The position numbers and the translations under genes were made by a program. A DNA stretch of 64,000 bases from a virus (lineage: Duplodnaviria > Caudoviricetes): IMG/VR virus record IMGVR_UViG_3300020577_001581, positions 4,227 through 68,226 of that record; one strand, given 5' to 3'. Shown in pieces: positions 1 to 22,557 of this stretch; within the stretch, counting starts at the first letter, position 1, and every line of letters starts with the position of its first letter. A model generated the notes under the pieces. The model had not been told where the DNA came from and ran no database searches. It saw nothing but the letters and a program-made list of their open reading frames with translations.

Positions 1-43
1 CTTACTCAGCTTAGTAAGAGGTAACGTTAAGCGAGTCAATAGG

Positions 44-141
44 ACACAAGGCAACACCTACTCTAATGTTGCCAACAGGTTAGATAAGTATCATTTGGCC
101 TAGTGATGCTATCGAATGAGGTTCGAATCCTCATTTGTGTT
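44..141 (+). ncRNA. tRNA-like structured RNA (acceptor stem + T-arm, non-canonical core)
   Basis: ACACAAG(44-50) pairs with TTTGTGT(134-140); T-arm TGAGG-TTCGAAT-CCTCA (117-133); internal hairpins GGCAACA/TGTTGCC (50-73) and GTATCA/TGATGC (88-109); no canonical anticodon loop. Confidence 0.55.
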
Positions 142-171
142 ATAGTCTACTAACTATATGAGGTAGTTAAC

Positions 172-303
172 ATGTTAGAAGTTTGCTTGATCGTAGTAAC
201 ACTTGCTTTAGTTTATGGATTTTATGTTACCATTAAAGACTTTATTAGTGGTAAGATTGATTCAAGTTTCATGTCTGAGCATGAGATAAAACAGTCTAAA
301 TAA
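172..303 (+). CDS. small membrane protein (43 aa, not in ORF track)
   Basis: GAGGT SD, then MLEVCLIVVTLALVYGFYVTIKDF..., one hydrophobic helix. Confidence 0.5.
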   Translation: MLEVCLIVVTLALVYGFYVTIKDFISGKIDSSFMSEHEIKQSK

Positions 304-342
304 ATTAAATAGGACACATCAAATATGTAGGAGGTTCACGTA

Positions 343-549
343 ATGACGATGAAAGAACGTATCAAACGCATTCATTATCTCTCATGGGGAATTGATCTTT
401 GGATTGATGGAGAGTACAATTGGAAAGGTATGTGTGAGAAAATAGGTATGAAACCATTAGAAAGTAAGAATCTTCGTTCATTGAAGAAAACAGATAATGA
501 GTCAACAAAATTAAGAAAAATTGCAAAAGCTGTTGACTCTACAATCTAA
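343..549 (+). CDS. hypothetical protein
   Basis: AGGAGG SD upstream; 68-aa ORF. Confidence 0.6.
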   Translation: MTMKERIKRIHYLSWGIDLWIDGEYNWKGMCEKIGMKPLESKNLRSLKKTDNESTKLRKIAKAVDSTI

Positions 550-672
550 CTTGATAAGATAGACTACTCAACAGAATTAGATTCTCTTACTTTCCTACTC
601 TTTATAGCGTAGGATTATGAGAGTGATCTACAGTAGATCCTCAAAATAACTTTTTAATGTAGGAGCGATAAG

Positions 673-2001
673 ATGGCTAAGTCTAAGGATATTGTTAAGA
701 GCAAGGTTACTCCTTCTATTGCTGGTGAAGAATTGTATCCCAGCGTTAGTGTGGTTGTTGCTCAAAACGTGGAAGGTAGTAAGCCTATCACTGTTCAAAA
801 GGCTAAGGAACTTTTGGGCGTAGAAGAAACAGAAGGAGCTGATTTTCTTATCAAGTTGGGAGAAAAGAAGTATAAGTGTAAGAACAATATGAAGAATCGG
901 CCTTTGTACCAGAATAATTGTCTTGATTTGGTACAATCGATTCTTAAGAAGCAATGGCATTTTAACGGTGAACCTATCATTGTCGGTAAGAAAGGTTCAC
1001 TATTGAACGGACAACATAGTCTTGTAGCTCTGTTGATGGCCGAACATGAACGTAAAGATGGTCCGAATAGCGAGCATTGGAAGGGTATTTGGCCGGAAGA
1101 ATGTTATATTGAGAAGCTGATTGTCTACGGTATTAGTGAAGATTCGCACGTTGTTGATACTATGGATACGTGCAAGCCGCGTAGTGTTGCAGATATCATC
1201 TTCCGATCTGACTACTTTGCAGATATTCAAAAGCCTAGCGAACGTAAGGCTGTTGCACGAATCGCAGATTTTACTATTCGTACATTGCGTAATCGTACTG
1301 GTGCGGATCGAGACGCATTCTCGCCTCGTAAAACGAATGTTGAAGCTGTCGACTTTGCGGAACGTCACAAGACATTGTTTAAGGCAGTATCGTTTGTCTT
1401 TACTGAAGATCAAGCAAAGGGAGAGGAAGACGAAGCTAAGAAGATTTCGCGATACGTTAGTTTGGGTACAGCTGCTAGTCTCTTGTACTTGATGGCACAA
1501 GCATCCAGTAACGATGAACAGATCGAAGAATATAACACTACTCCTAATGAAAGTAAGCTTGACTTTGGTAATTGGGACAAGGCAGAAGAATATTGGTTGT
1601 TGATCGCCAAAAAGGATCCTTCGGTTTTGGCTGTAACTAAGGCAATTGCTAACCTTGCTGATATCGATACAGGTGTTGCTGGTCGAAGTTCCAAGAAGGA
1701 AATTATCGCACTATTGATCAAGGGATGGGAAGCTTGGTTTAAGAATGAAGTTATTACTGCAGACGATTTGCAGCTCGAATTTGGTACGACGGAAGAGGGT
1801 ATTCGATTCCTTGATGAATACCCTGTTGTTGGTGGTATTGATCAAGATTTGAGCGAAGATATCGAAGATGATGAAGTTACTGTTCCTAACACTGAAATTG
1901 TCGAACAAACTGAAGAAGAAGAGTTCCAGGAACCTGACGGCGAAGAAGTTGAAGAAGAAGAACCTGCCAAGCCTGCAGGAAGGAAAGTTGGAAAAAAGTA
2001 A
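673..2001 (+). CDS. ParB/Srx (DGQHR-like) N-terminal domain protein with acidic tail
   Basis: NRPL...W.FNGEPII...G.LLNGQHSL.A matches the phage ParB-like pattern; Glu/Asp-rich C-terminus; AGGAG SD. Confidence 0.65.
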   Translation: MAKSKDIVKSKVTPSIAGEELYPSVSVVVAQNVEGSKPITVQKAKELLGVEETEGADFLIKLGEKKYKCKNNMKNRPLYQNNCLDLVQSILKKQWHFNGEPIIVGKKGSLLNGQHSLVALLMAEHERKDGPNSEHWKGIWPEECYIEKLIVYGISEDSHVVDTMDTCKPRSVADIIFRSDYFADIQKPSERKAVARIADFTIRTLRNRTGADRDAFSPRKTNVEAVDFAERHKTLFKAVSFVFTEDQAKGEEDEAKKISRYVSLGTAASLLYLMAQASSNDEQIEEYNTTPNESKLDFGNWDKAEEYWLLIAKKDPSVLAVTKAIANLADIDTGVAGRSSKKEIIALLIKGWEAWFKNEVITADDLQLEFGTTEEGIRFLDEYPVVGGIDQDLSEDIEDDEVTVPNTEIVEQTEEEEFQEPDGEEVEEEEPAKPAGRKVGKK

Positions 2002-2010
2002 CTACTTAGG

Positions 2011-2039
2011 TTGACGTCCATCTCCCTCTAGTGTATAAT
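2011..2039 (+). promoter_or_regulatory. sigma70-type promoter overlapping a 10-bp inverted repeat
   Basis: TTGACG-N17-TATAAT; TCTCCCTCTA(2021-2030)/TAGAGGGAGA(2040-2049) flank the -10 box. Confidence 0.75.
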
Positions 2040-2049
2040 TAGAGGGAGA

Positions 2050-2126
2050 AGAGAGTTAGTTTAGTTGGAAAAACAATACTCAATTCACGGGTGAGTATTA
2101 CACTGGTTCGACTCCAGTACTCTCTT
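2050..2126 (+). ncRNA. tRNA-like RNA with elongated anticodon arm
   Basis: Acceptor AGAGAGT/ACTCTCT; D-arm GTTT-AGTTGGAA-AAAC; 7-bp stem ATACTCA/TGAGTAT around 9-nt loop ATTCACGGG; T-arm ACTGG-TTCGACT-CCAGT. Confidence 0.7.
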
Positions 2127-2158
2127 CTGTTCTAACACTAGTATGAGGCGAGTGTATC

Positions 2159-3766
2159 ATGAGTTTCAAAGAATCTATTGCTAAGAAGTCTGTTAATAAG
2201 TTTCCTCCTCATCTTTTCATTGAAGCTAGAGCGGGAACAGGTAAAACTACTACATTAGTAGAAGGTCTAAAGTATATAAAGAATATTCCCACAAAGATTA
2301 TGCCTTCTGATCAACAAAAGGCTATTTGGGATTCTCTCATTCTTTCGAAGGATGCTCGTACAATTGGTTTTGTGGCATTTAATAAATCTATCGCAGATGA
2401 ACTTGCCGTACGCGTACCTGTTGGCTGTTCGGCAATGACTTTGCATAGTTTGGGCAATCGAGCATTATCTAATCAATTCGGACGATTAAAAGTAGAAAGC
2501 TATCGAGTATCAAACCTCATTTCGAAGATTGTAGGGATTGATGGTAGAGCTCTCAAAAAGAATAAGCCTATCGTAATGTCGAATACGGAAGAACTTGTCA
2601 GATTGTGCAAGCTTTCGTTAGTTAATCATGATATTACAGACGATGAATCGTGGGCTACATCATTAAATGAATTGTGCGAATATTATGATATTGAGTTTGA
2701 TAATGACACTCAAAAGAGTGAAGTATATTCTTTAATTCCACGTGTCATAGAAGCTTGTAAAGACGTACAAGCAGACTTACAAATTGATTTTAATGATATG
2801 ATTTGGCTACCTGTTGTACTTAACATCCCTCTTGTTAAGTATGATCTATTGTTAGTAGATGAAGCCCAGGACCTTAATAAGTGTCAACAGGAATTAGTTA
2901 AAAGATGTGGTTCACGATTAGTATTTTGTGGTGATCCACGTCAAGCTATCTATGGGTTTGCAGGAGCTGATTCACGTAGTATGGCACGATTGCAAGAGCA
3001 ATTAGCTAGCCTAGGTCAACAGACGCAAACTCTCAAGTTAACCGAAACTAGGCGATGTGGTAAAGCTATCGTTGTCGAAGCTAACCGTATCGTCGAAGAC
3101 TTTACAGCACATGAAAACAATCCTGCAGGTAAGGTAACCAGTCTTCAATTATCTACTGTATCATATGATGAAAATGGCGAACAATCAAAGAAAAAGTCAT
3201 TCGTCGATGAATTGCAATCAGGTGATATGGTTGTATGTCGGGTCAATGCTCAACTAGTTAATCAGTTTTTCCGTACCATAGCAAAGGGTAAGACATCGCG
3301 AATCATCGGTAGGGATATCGGACAGAACTTGATTAGCATTATCAAGAAGTGTACTAAAGAAAAGGTAATGCCTATCGAAGATCTTTTGATTGAACTTGAC
3401 ATATGGATGAACAAAGCACGTTCTAAGGAACTTGCTAAAACTAATCCATCTGAGAATCGTCTAGATGCTATTGCGGATAAGTATGATTGTCTAGTGATGT
3501 TTTGTCAAGACAAAGATACATCACAAGAAGTTATTGGATTCATCAACGAAGTGTTTAGCGATGACAAGCTTTCAACAGCTATCCGATTTAGCACAATCCA
3601 TAAAGCTAAAGGTCTAGAAGCTAAACGAGTATTCTTTCTCTCTGTTGATACTCAAGGTAACTTTTCATTTGCTGGAAAGTCTAAAGGATGGGGTAGAGAG
3701 CAAGAACATAACCTAGAGTATGTCGCAATTACTAGAGCTATAGAAGATTTATTCTATGTCGGTTAA
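2159..3766 (+). CDS. UvrD/Rep-like superfamily 1 DNA helicase
   Basis: ARAGTGKTT Walker A, AFNKSIA, VDEAQD, GDPRQAIYGF, STIHKAKGLE, YVAITRA. Confidence 0.95.
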   Translation: MSFKESIAKKSVNKFPPHLFIEARAGTGKTTTLVEGLKYIKNIPTKIMPSDQQKAIWDSLILSKDARTIGFVAFNKSIADELAVRVPVGCSAMTLHSLGNRALSNQFGRLKVESYRVSNLISKIVGIDGRALKKNKPIVMSNTEELVRLCKLSLVNHDITDDESWATSLNELCEYYDIEFDNDTQKSEVYSLIPRVIEACKDVQADLQIDFNDMIWLPVVLNIPLVKYDLLLVDEAQDLNKCQQELVKRCGSRLVFCGDPRQAIYGFAGADSRSMARLQEQLASLGQQTQTLKLTETRRCGKAIVVEANRIVEDFTAHENNPAGKVTSLQLSTVSYDENGEQSKKKSFVDELQSGDMVVCRVNAQLVNQFFRTIAKGKTSRIIGRDIGQNLISIIKKCTKEKVMPIEDLLIELDIWMNKARSKELAKTNPSENRLDAIADKYDCLVMFCQDKDTSQEVIGFINEVFSDDKLSTAIRFSTIHKAKGLEAKRVFFLSVDTQGNFSFAGKSKGWGREQEHNLEYVAITRAIEDLFYVG

Positions 3767-4244
3767 AAACATTTATTTGGGTATTGATCCAGGATACTCA
3801 AGCGGACATTTAGCTTTCCTTAATCAAGAGGGAAAGCTTATTCAACTAACTTCTATGCCAAAAATAGAACAGGAGTTAGTTGATTTATTCCATCATTGGA
3901 ATAGACCAGGTATATGGAAAATCTATTCATGTTTAGAAAATGTACATGCTATGCCAGGACAAGGTGTATCCACCATGTTTAAGTTTGGATGTAATTATGG
4001 TATGTTAAAAATGGGAATGATGACAATAGCAGACATTTGGACTATTGTAGATCCTAGAAAATGGCAGAAGTTTTTCGGATTAAAACGTTCTAAATCTTGG
4101 ACAGATAAAGAATGGAAAAAACACATAGCAAATAAAGCAAGGAAAGATTTTCCTACACAATCTAAACAGATAAAAGATTCTGCAGCTGATGCAATCATGC
4201 TAGCTAGGTACTGCTACTTGACAAACAACGGAATGACTGTATAA
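3756..4244 (+). CDS. ruvC: RuvC-like Holliday junction resolvase
   Basis: LGIDPG, ENVHAMPGQGVSTMFKFG, ADAIMLA. Confidence 0.85.
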   Translation: MSVKNIYLGIDPGYSSGHLAFLNQEGKLIQLTSMPKIEQELVDLFHHWNRPGIWKIYSCLENVHAMPGQGVSTMFKFGCNYGMLKMGMMTIADIWTIVDPRKWQKFFGLKRSKSWTDKEWKKHIANKARKDFPTQSKQIKDSAADAIMLARYCYLTNNGMTV

Positions 4245-4245
4245 T
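4218..4245 (+). promoter_or_regulatory. sigma70-type promoter
   Basis: TTGACA-N16-TATAAT immediately before a tRNA-like RNA. Confidence 0.7.
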
Positions 4246-4251
4246 ATAAGT

Positions 4252-4350
4252 GTGCTGGTCTTCTAAATGGTAGGATACTCAACAGATGTAAAGCTTTCGG
4301 CACCAGGCTCCATCGACAGAGTGATGTAGGTTCGATTCCTACCCAGCACA
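4252..4350 (+). ncRNA. tRNA-like RNA with a ~38-nt insert in place of the anticodon loop
   Basis: Acceptor GTGCTGG/CCAGCAC; D-arm TTCT-AAATGGT-AGGA; ACTC/GAGT stem enclosing 4281-4318; T-arm GTAGG-TTCGATT-CCTAC. Confidence 0.7.
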
Positions 4351-4380
4351 ATCTACACATACTTTAAGAGGAAGTATCTC

Positions 4381-4578
4381 ATGTCACTAATTGAAAAAAT
4401 AAAATACTATTGGAAACATTTTAAAGGTAGACTTAGATTAGATCTTAACTTAGTATGTGAACTAAGTAAAGATATGGGAACCTATGACTATCATGATTAT
4501 CCTGATGATGAAATAGGTACTCCATGTCATTTTGTAATACTCAAATGTAAACGATGTGGTAAAGAATTTTACATGTAA
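4381..4578 (+). CDS. small hypothetical protein with Zn-ribbon-like C-terminus
   Basis: GAGG SD; C-terminal CH...CKRCG. Confidence 0.65.
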   Translation: MSLIEKIKYYWKHFKGRLRLDLNLVCELSKDMGTYDYHDYPDDEIGTPCHFVILKCKRCGKEFYM

Positions 4579-5045: not shown

Positions 5046-5610
5046 GCTGCAACTACATCTAGATAATTGGAAAGATTGTACTAGATGCAAACTACATGAG
5101 GTTAGACGTAATGTAGTTTTGCTACGTGGAACAGTACCGTGTGATATCCTGTTCATAGGTGAAGCTCCAGGAGAGTCAGAGAACGCGTTAGGTAAGCCTT
5201 TTAGAGGCCCTGCAGGCAATCTGTTACAAGAGATCATAGAAGTTACTCAGCAGCATACAAAAGGCTACACCTACGCAATGACTAACCTTATCGGATGCAT
5301 ACCCAAAGTAGATGGAGAGAAGCTAACTAGTCCACCGAAAGAATCTGTCACAGCATGCTTTCCACGTATCAACGAACTAGTTGAATTATGTAATCCAAAA
5401 GGATTAATATTAGTTGGAAATGATGCTCAAAAGTTTTTTGAACTACATAACAATAAACTACTACAACAAATAAAATTTATTAAGATTCAACATCCAGCAG
5501 CTATTTTACGTAAACCACAAGTATCATGGGGATTAGATTGTCAAAAAATTGAAATACAAATAACTGACTTTATAGAAGAATTGTACGGAGATAATAATGC
5601 TACTAATTAA
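5032..5610 (+). CDS. family 4 uracil-DNA glycosylase
   Basis: CTRC Fe-S ligands, FIGEAPG motif A, F.GPAG, TNLIGC.P, HPAAILR motif B. Confidence 0.92.
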   Translation: MSKSKLQLHLDNWKDCTRCKLHEVRRNVVLLRGTVPCDILFIGEAPGESENALGKPFRGPAGNLLQEIIEVTQQHTKGYTYAMTNLIGCIPKVDGEKLTSPPKESVTACFPRINELVELCNPKGLILVGNDAQKFFELHNNKLLQQIKFIKIQHPAAILRKPQVSWGLDCQKIEIQITDFIEELYGDNNATN

Positions 5611-5773
5611 TCGTGGAATTAATCAAGAAATTCTTTTATCATTAGAAGGATATAAATTAGGAAGGATTATAGTAACAGAAATTAGTGGTAAAAAAGTAAC
5701 ACTTGGATTTGAATTAGACAAAAATGTTGAAATAAAAAGGAAAGAATTAGATGACAAACAAACTAAAGAGTAA
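5597..5773 (+). CDS. csrA: CsrA/RsmA-like RNA-binding translational regulator (58 aa, missed by ORF track)
   Basis: MLLINRGINQEILL...GRIIVTEISGKKVTLGFELDKNVEIKRKEL fits the CsrA pattern ML.L.R...E.I.I...I.V..I.G..V.LG...P..V.I.R.E; GGAG SD; overlaps both neighbours. Confidence 0.75.
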   Translation: MLLINRGINQEILLSLEGYKLGRIIVTEISGKKVTLGFELDKNVEIKRKELDDKQTKE

Positions 5774-17973: not shown

Positions 17974-18002
17974 TTGACATTTTATATAATATTCCTTATA
18001 AT
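17974..18002 (+). promoter_or_regulatory. consensus sigma70 promoter
   Basis: TTGACA-N17-TATAAT before the primase-helicase gene. Confidence 0.8.
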
Positions 18003-18056
18003 ATAAAGTATTGTAAGGAATATTATTTTTGTCTAAACAATCAATAAGGTAGGATA

Positions 18057-22484: not shown

Positions 22485-22557
22485 GGGACTATAGCTCAAC
22501 GGTAAGAGCAGGAGACTCATAATCTCTTGGTTCTAGGTTCGAATCCTAGTAGTCCCA
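22485..22557 (+). tRNA. tRNA-Ile2 (CAT anticodon, lysidine type; Met cannot be excluded)
   Basis: Canonical cloverleaf GGGACTA/TAGTCCC; anticodon arm GGAGA-CT-CAT-AA-TCTCT resembles enterobacterial ileX; no encoded CCA. Confidence 0.85.

Follow-up and report, generated by a model that had tools for sequence, protein, structure and literature searches.

This study concerned a phage locus at which a tRNA-shaped sequence stands between a promoter-like site and a helicase gene, and the question that it raises is whether such an element is a working tRNA, the remnant of one, or an RNA with another task. The window, that is, the whole stretch of 64,000 nucleotides that was analyzed, comprises positions 4227-68226 of a 68-kb IMG/VR record that is approximately 95% complete. 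An earlier note on this DNA had described the element, termed tL1 here (2050..2126, plus strand), as a promoter-proximal tRNA mimic with an over-long anticodon arm, and had suggested that it may be a decoy for anticodon nucleases or tRNA-sensing defenses, a processing signal for RNase P and RNase Z, or a frameshift-suppressor-like tRNA.

Structure and setting of tL1

ARAGORN called a tRNA at 2050-2127 and labeled it 'Glu ttc'; the 'Glu' label is an artifact of tolerant loop handling. The Rfam tRNA model (RF00005) matched 2050-2126 with 45.4 bits (gathering score, 29; E 1.9e-6) under permissive filters, and the default filters missed tL1 despite this 45-bit score. The default filters may be one reason that such elements stay unannotated, and routine annotation may under-report them.

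The predicted fold and the comparison with relatives likewise revealed a tRNA-derived cloverleaf. The acceptor stem (AGAGAGU/ACUCUCU, 7 bp) is followed by U8 and A9, the D arm reads GUUU-AGUUGGAA-AAAC and carries G18 G19, and the T arm reads ACUGG-UUCGACU-CCAGU; the canonical tertiary positions U8, A14, and G18 G19, the UUCGA T loop, and the G15-C48 pair are present. The acceptor and T stems form a 7+5 bp coaxial stack that, together with the G18 G19/UUCGA elbow, has the geometry of an RNase P/Z signal. The discriminator U73 is followed by CUG, and CCA is not encoded; such a CCA-free 3' side, which is permissive for RNase Z, was found both in tL1 and in the sister element tL2 described below. 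The anticodon stem comprises seven Watson-Crick pairs (2076-2082 with 2092-2098) in addition to A2075-U2099 (the 26-44 pair), and it closes a 9-nt loop, AUUCACGGG. The variable region is abnormal, with 3 nt (UAC) and one deletion relative to the Rfam model. The cloverleaf, the conserved nucleotides, the score above the cut-off, and the covariation reported below place tL1 structurally within RF00005.

The structural statements of the earlier note (canonical acceptor, D, and T arms, a 7-bp stem, and a 9-nt loop) all held, and ARAGORN and the Rfam model, the kinds of scoring that it had named as a check, both recognized the element. We also considered a tmRNA or a YrlA-type domain and rejected both: ARAGORN called no tmRNA in the window and no tag frame, Rfam gave no match, and the acceptor ends are open and tRNA-like. 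No ribozyme family matched the window, or genome positions 1-4500, up to an E value of 10.

A sigma-70-type promoter-like site lies upstream of tL1 (2011..2039, plus strand), with TTGACG at 2011-2016, a 17-nt spacer, and TATAAT at 2034-2039. It matches 11 of the 12 consensus positions and is among only four matches to TTGAC-N15-19-TATAAT in the 64 kb. Transcription from this site is expected to start at approximately 2046. The -10 box is conserved in all relatives, and the -35 sequence in the near relative L025 is TTAATG. A perfect 10-bp inverted repeat (2021..2049, plus strand; TCTCCCTCTA / TAGAGGGAGA) brackets the -10 box and ends immediately before the first base of tL1. A repeated operator was ruled out, the palindrome being unique in the window. 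Its variants, a C to T change in the left arm in L025 and an A to G change in the right arm in L028, both retain G-U pairing in the plus-strand RNA, and the palindrome may be an operator or the 3' hairpin of the upstream message.

Downstream of tL1, a 32-nt spacer (2127..2158, plus strand) in which a Shine-Dalgarno sequence, GAGG (2146-2149), can be read leads to the ATG of a UvrD/SF1 helicase gene (2159..3766, plus strand; Pfam PF00580, 1.4e-20, with PF13245 and PF13361), the first gene after tL1. This spacer would be the entire 5' UTR of the helicase if a cut falls after the discriminator, and comparable spacers of 15-32 nt are found behind the sister elements, the tRNA-Met, and the ribozymes of relatives. 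The promoter-proximal position (10 nt past the TATAAT of TTGACG-N17-TATAAT) and the place at the head of the helicase operon, both asserted in the earlier note, were thus borne out. The best protein matches of the helicase are approximately 33% identical, and the only RNA contig over the region lies at 3086-3307, within the helicase gene.

Other promoter-like sites were observed in the window. At 17974-18035, an 11-bp inverted repeat (AATATTCCTTA / TAAGGAATATT) that is followed by a T run contains the -10 box of the fourth consensus promoter, the layout of a terminator-like hairpin overlapping a promoter and compact like the tL1 site. An extended -35 motif, TTGACTCT, with TAnnnT at 16-17 nt, is present at window positions 533, 24342 (minus strand), 24417, 24773, 27317, and 28289 and at position 4112 of the phage's own genome. 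These sites are probably the main promoter class of the phage, and not all of the copies precede a tRNA-like element.

Selection on the tRNA body and plasticity of the anticodon arm

Near relatives were obtained through protein searches of other assemblies, namely L025 (70 kb), L028 (21.8 kb), and L027 (1.8 kb), and these phages are approximately 96% identical in protein. Helicase homologues with 36-54% identity delimited a large family of uncultured phages, in many of which the helicase gene follows a homologue of the 442-aa upstream gene, in the same order as in the window. A megablast search against isolated phages revealed no close DNA relative, and exact-pattern scans of IMG/VR with tL1 and tL2 returned the source record only. 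A scan of bacterial genomes with the 3' half of tL2 gave no match that would point to a host or to a parental host tRNA. In the phage K1F reference genome (NC_007456), no match to RF00005 was found.

As a neutral yardstick, the two flanking genes were compared between the window and L025, L027, and L028 at the third positions of codons whose amino acid is the same. The results revealed that these synonymous positions were 16-23% different, whereas tL1 showed a single difference over its 77 nt in L025, likewise one over 77 nt in L028, and two over the 58 nt that lie outside the anticodon arm in L027 (binomial P values of 1e-7, 4e-6, and 7e-5 against the neutral divergence). The cloverleaf was retained in the three near relatives and in one distant element, L116. 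In the covariation alignment, which comprised only five sequences (window, L025, L027, L028, and L116) and owed most of its double changes to L116, 94% of the cells were paired compared with 41-58% in slid controls, 13 pairs had changed on both sides, and none of 500 shuffles reached the observed values. Judged from these sequence comparisons, the selection on the tRNA mimics appears to be about as strong as that on proteins.

These findings bear on the possibility that tL1 is a decaying, functionless tRNA pseudogene at a tRNA-prone spot. Real tRNAs do stand 5' of the helicase gene in distant relatives, and the anticodon arm looks damaged; however, a single change in 77 nt against such neutral divergence contradicts decay, as do the compensatory substitutions, the paired insertions in the anticodon stem, and the presence of three elements of the same architecture in one genome. 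Because tL1 is under selection and covaries while synonymous positions have diverged by 16-23%, we consider a decaying pseudogene extremely unlikely. The earlier note had named a decayed pseudogene without compensatory changes in relatives as the outcome that would tell against it, and the comparison across related phages that it had proposed instead yielded compensatory changes together with strong purifying selection.

We lowered our confidence in L116 as a strict orthologue, since the D arm that it has in common with tL1 (UAGUUUARUUGGAAAAAC) serves as a scaffold in many real tRNAs, among them Val, Trp, and Gly tRNAs of Bacteroidota genomes. The same scaffold was observed in L129-L145 (Bacteroidota genomes and one Alkanindiges MAG) within tRNA arrays whose anticodons are unusual (Asp-atc, Gly-acc, SeC-tca, Val-tac, and Trp-cca), and these arrays resemble tRNA clusters of mobile elements or prophages.

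Among the window, L025, L027, and L028, tL1 is plastic in its anticodon arm only. In the window and L028, the stem has 7 bp and the loop 9 nt. In L025, a U2092C change breaks the closing pair and leaves a 6-bp stem with an 11-nt loop, and in L027, 10 perfect base pairs (ATATATCTAA/TTAGATATAT) close a 7-nt loop, AUCACAG. The L027 stem originated when a C-G pair was replaced by A-U in a compensatory change and both strands gained matching insertions; the paired insertions of this L027-type stem were first detected in sequencing run X4, one of the runs (X1-X4) from riverine and freshwater samples that contain this phage. All five tL1-type sequences carry the same triplet, UCA, in the loop, and this constancy is not accounted for by a pure processing signal.

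A working decoder, whether a tRNA-Val(CAC), a tRNA-Glu(UUC), or a UGA or frameshift suppressor with an expanded anticodon arm, would agree with the anticodon assigned by ARAGORN, with the well-formed 7-mer loop of L027, and with a D arm that serves as the scaffold of real Val, Trp, and Gly tRNAs in Bacteroidota. However, with stems of 6, 7, or 10 bp the distance between loop and acceptor end changes by up to approximately 5 bp, a variable region of 3 nt is abnormal, the tL2 of the window has no anticodon loop at all, and translation of the window genes under code 11 is normal and calls for no suppression. A decoding tRNA needs a fixed distance between anticodon and acceptor; because the arm of tL1 varies in length, we consider the probability of a decoding role to be next to nil. 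tL1 has neither a stem of at most 5-6 bp with a 7-nt loop (U33, purine 37) at a fixed acceptor distance nor a variable region of 4-5 nt or a long variable arm. The 8-nt loop on a normal stem that marks a frameshift suppressor was likewise not found, the loops of 9, 11, and 7 nt standing on stems of 7, 6, and 10 bp, and the frameshift-suppressor-like tRNA suggested earlier is excluded in practice.

Sister elements and the occupants of the helicase gap

A second consensus promoter-like site (4218..4245, plus strand; TTGACA, a 16-nt spacer, and TATAAT) matches all 12 consensus positions, overlaps the stop codon of a 162-aa gene, and is retained in L025 and L028. tL2, a 99-nt tRNA mimic (4252..4350, plus strand) identified by its fold and by the Rfam tRNA model (37.1 bits), lies 6 nt past the -10 box of this site and 30 nt ahead of the ATG at 4381. 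An irregular 48-nt hairpin takes the place of its anticodon arm, with 38 nt where the Rfam model has 11, and its discriminator A73 is followed by AUC. The length of tL2 is 99 nt in the window, 101 nt in L025, where the arm has two additional bases, and 72 nt in L028 (4179-4250); these near-identical phages thus have exchanged the entire anticodon arm, and the acceptor, D, and T arms are conserved. The L028 version has an arm of ordinary size and is labeled Leu-taa by ARAGORN, although it carries A33 and an A-A mismatch and lacks a long variable arm. The reading of the tL2 insert as an intron was rejected, since the 99-nt and 72-nt versions do not have the same flanks and A33 and the A-A mismatch persist in the shorter one.

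A looser four-way junction, tL0 (43..141, plus strand; 4269-4367 in the phage's own genome), carries the canonical T loop GGTTCGAATCC and has a fold z-score of -3.7. Its 7-bp acceptor-like stem is stacked on a 6-bp T stem, it lies 30 nt before the ATG at 172 of the first small ORF, and it has no Rfam match. The tL0 of L025 (7880-7985) is conserved and stands 10 nt past TTGACT-N17-TAAGAT; the loop of the first hairpin has 10 versus 14 nt, and the stems are conserved. In the window genome, an extra 120-nt structured leader, which is missing in L025, follows the promoter upstream of tL0. Three consecutive early units are therefore each composed of a promoter, a tRNA-shaped RNA, and a short RBS-bearing spacer.

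The phage also carries a genuine tRNA-Met (22485-22557), 22 nt before an ATG, and CCA is not encoded in either of its two real tRNAs. CCA-less tRNAs are matured by RNase Z and the CCA-adding enzyme; because the real tRNAs of the phage are CCA-less, the host must use the RNase Z route.

Matches to the tRNA model with abnormal anticodon regions were also observed in relatives, at L021:1501-1621, L112:1501-1587, L119:1501-1638, L115:1501-1567, L117:1501-1589, and L118:1501-1565. Their abnormalities are inserts of 19-77 nt, a loop reduced to 2 nt, or a truncated D arm, and some of these elements lie 13-38 nt before a start codon and others do not. A small ORF (5597-5773) is flanked by the UDG and exonuclease genes and shares an operon with the tRNA mimics; its counterparts, L025:13450-13644 and L028:5497-5691, have precomputed CsrA (PF02599) matches, and on these matches the ORF encodes a putative CsrA-like RNA-binding protein of the phage.

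The gap 5' of the helicase gene was then compared across relatives. In L012, a type II hammerhead (47.7 bits, above the cut-off) stands directly 5' of the helicase, with the ATG 15 nt later. In L033, a twister (58.9 bits, E 4e-14), in which the conserved blocks UAAUGCG, CAAGCCCG, and GCAGAG were all found, lies 7 nt after a TATACT box, and L065 has a probable twister (38.4 bits) in the gap; both twister scores are below the Rfam curated cut-off of 67.2 bits. Rfam at the gathering threshold gave no match in the loci of 17 relatives, and searches for pistol, twister-sister, and hatchet ribozymes in 30 records gave none in the records and none in the controls. A total of 10 ribozyme matches were found in 29 relatives, and 3 of the 10 lie in the helicase gap (P 2e-4 to 4e-3, assuming a landing chance of 1/80 to 1/30 for each); the ribozyme parallel concerns 3 of approximately 14 relatives with the shared gene order. 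The ribozymes of L005 and L006 lie 15-25 nt before an RBS and ATG, no more than 2.5 kb upstream of the helicase. All three tRNA mimics and all ribozymes above or near the Rfam cut-off are located 13-32 nt before an RBS and ATG.

In a more distant clade, a real tRNA-Leu(UAA), with or without a tRNA-Met, occupies the helicase gap (L051, L053, and L054) or lies further upstream of the helicase (L066). The real tRNAs in the gap would also fit with a plain tRNA-gene location. A conserved hairpin of approximately 90 nt, GGGGAAGG ... CCTTCCCC, which has no Rfam name, was observed in the same genomes (L053:2343-2445, L054:2361-2463, L051:2133-2240, and L066:1492-1590) between the tRNA-Leu/Met and the next gene, which is the helicase in L053 and L054. 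The helicase genes themselves are interrupted or enlarged in some relatives, namely L015 (match split into 1471-2103 and 3001-3882), L065 (a 1042-aa ORF), L083, and P0037; the protein P0037 has intein and endonuclease Pfam domains, which suggests that inteins may be present in the helicase family.

A precedent for a ribozyme at this position comes from the haloviruses HF1 and HF2, in which a hammerhead precedes the helicase, the first gene of an early polycistronic transcript, and the mapped 5' end of the transcript lies within 3 nt of the hammerhead cleavage site (PMC3088659). The occupants found in the relatives support the view that the helicase slot may need an RNA that gets cut.

These occupants also bear on whether tL1 could be a promoter-proximal regulatory RNA, such as a put-like antitermination element or a tRNA-mimicking operator for a protein. 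The put RNA of HK022 is a cis-acting phage leader RNA, and the mimics, like such leaders, stand after early promoters and ahead of long operons; the unique palindrome around the -10 box would also suit this role. Nevertheless, no regulatory RNA family of Rfam matched at tL1, the conserved nucleotides are generic tRNA tertiary positions, and ribozymes and genuine tRNAs in the same slot are at odds with antitermination. We therefore regard a regulatory role of this kind as very unlikely.

A proposed role at the 5' end of the helicase message

To the proposal that tL1 is a cis-acting leader recognized by the host RNase P and RNase Z, which would set the mRNA 5' end in the way that the ribozymes do, we assign about an even chance. 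RNase P and RNase Z read the acceptor/T stack, the elbow, and the CCA-free 3' side of their substrates and ignore the anticodon arm. The processing-signal reading is favored because the conserved parts of tL1 are those read by these enzymes and because ribozymes and tRNAs share the slot. Among the roles suggested in the earlier note, that of an RNase P/Z signal is accordingly the one favored by the comparative evidence (the conserved parts, the lack of CCA, and the slot occupancy), and from this evidence we infer the cleavage of tL1, the enzymes involved, and the effect on expression.

In this proposal, tL1 would be a derivative of a tRNA gene that has lost decoding and has been kept at the 5' end of the helicase-operon transcript. 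In transcripts from the adjacent promoter or from upstream read-through, RNase P would cut at 2049/2050 and RNase Z just past the discriminator, at 2126/2127. The two cuts would separate the helicase message from upstream RNA and leave it with a defined leader of approximately 32 nt that carries the RBS only. If RNase P alone acted, the message would retain a base-paired, tRNA-shaped 5' end. In the relatives, hammerhead or twister ribozymes or real tRNAs would do the equivalent job at the helicase gap. The possible benefits of cutting may include a message insulated from upstream RNA, a 5' end without the triphosphate, and stability. When the promoters are used, the 5' leader to be removed would be approximately 4 nt for tL1 and 0-1 nt for tL2, and RNase P would then matter mainly for read-through.

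This short distance is also an argument for an uncut structural cap, in which the acceptor stem would bury the 5' end, shield the message from decay by RppH, RNase E, or RNase J, and perhaps tune ribosome access. The predicted start lies 0-4 nt before the first acceptor base in tL1 and tL2, and the tL0 of L025 begins 10 nt past its -10 box. A twister has its self-cleavage site near its 5' end and, after self-cleavage, would likewise persist as a folded 5' end. However, a simple hairpin would suffice for such a cap, which leaves the elbow, the exact 7+5 bp stack, and the CCA-less 3' side unaccounted for, and the host RNase Z, which the CCA-less tRNAs of the phage require, would be expected to cut tL1 as well. 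We consider an uncut cap quite unlikely.

The main product of the promoter could instead be the small RNA itself. According to this alternative, tL1, tL2, and tL0 would be stable non-decoding RNAs acting in trans as decoys for factors that read the acceptor, the T arm, or the elbow, and the suggested targets are acceptor-end-modifying toxins, tRNA-sensing defense proteins, and processing or modification enzymes. The two best sigma-70 matches of the first 12 kb drive tL1 and tL2 directly, as is typical of stable RNA genes; conservation is limited to the tRNA body; several such elements are present per genome; and the aberrant tRNA-like elements of relatives are not always near gene starts. Nevertheless, a trans decoy fails to explain the ribozymes that substitute at the helicase gap and the constant distance of 15-32 nt to the RBS, and no defense or toxin partner was identified. 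Of the decoy role put forward in the earlier note, the part concerning anticodon nucleases is disfavored, since the anticodon arm varies and is the least conserved part of tL1, and possible targets would be factors that read the acceptor, T arm, or elbow. Overall, trans decoys of this sort, including the targets named, appear unlikely but merit serious consideration.

Returning to the processing-signal proposal, comparison with known systems indicates where tL1 would belong. It shares with phage tRNA genes (RF00005) the fold, the tertiary nucleotides, and a score above the cut-off, and it precedes a protein gene on its transcript; the operon-embedded tRNAs of the E. coli thrU-tyrU-glyT-thrT-tufB operon are likewise cotranscribed with an mRNA. 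Unlike phage tRNA genes, tL1 is unannotated and has an anticodon stem of 6-10 bp, loops of 7-11 nt, and a 3-nt variable region, with which it cannot decode. Non-decoding tRNA-like processing signals that are cut by RNase P and RNase Z include the mascRNA of MALAT1, the tRNA-miRNA (TMER) units of MHV68, and the 'tRNA punctuation' of mitochondria. tL1 resembles them in being a tRNA shape without decoding inside a longer transcript, in which it would be cut; they are eukaryotic or organellar, whereas tL1 is the leader of a bacteriophage operon after a sigma-70-type promoter.

The hammerhead of HF1/HF2 and the ribozymes of L012, L033, and L065 share with tL1 the slot 5' of the helicase RBS, sometimes after a promoter-like site, and in each case a processed 5' end near the start codon would be expected. 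In contrast to the ribozymes, tL1 has no catalytic core and would rely on host enzymes, which would leave 5'-phosphate rather than 5'-hydroxyl ends. RNase III hairpins between the genes of phage T7 cut the polycistronic RNA and shape mRNA stability, and they resemble tL1 as host-nuclease sites within phage intergenic leaders. The nuclease and the fold are different, however, and a classical RNase III site would need a longer stem than the 10 bp beside tL1. Our literature searches found no conserved non-decoding tRNA mimics described as bacteriophage operon leaders.

More broadly, the RNA before the helicase RBS may be an interchangeable '5'-end cassette', filled by a host-dependent tRNA mimic, a genuine tRNA, or a self-cleaving ribozyme with a shared job at the 5' end. 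We advance this generalization tentatively and place its probability somewhat below one half. The natural swap of mimic and ribozyme suggests that both help to define the mRNA 5' end. To our knowledge, most self-cleaving ribozymes carried by phages have no established biological role, and the cassette reading, if true, would provide a concrete and testable function for phage hammerhead and twister ribozymes and would reveal a class of non-decoding tRNA mimics that standard annotation has overlooked. ARAGORN miscalls (tRNA-Glu and tRNA-Leu) or Rfam misses can distort phage tRNA counts and arguments from codon usage. The tRNA mimics would also be natural counterparts of the ribozyme insulators and tRNA-processing cassettes of synthetic biology.
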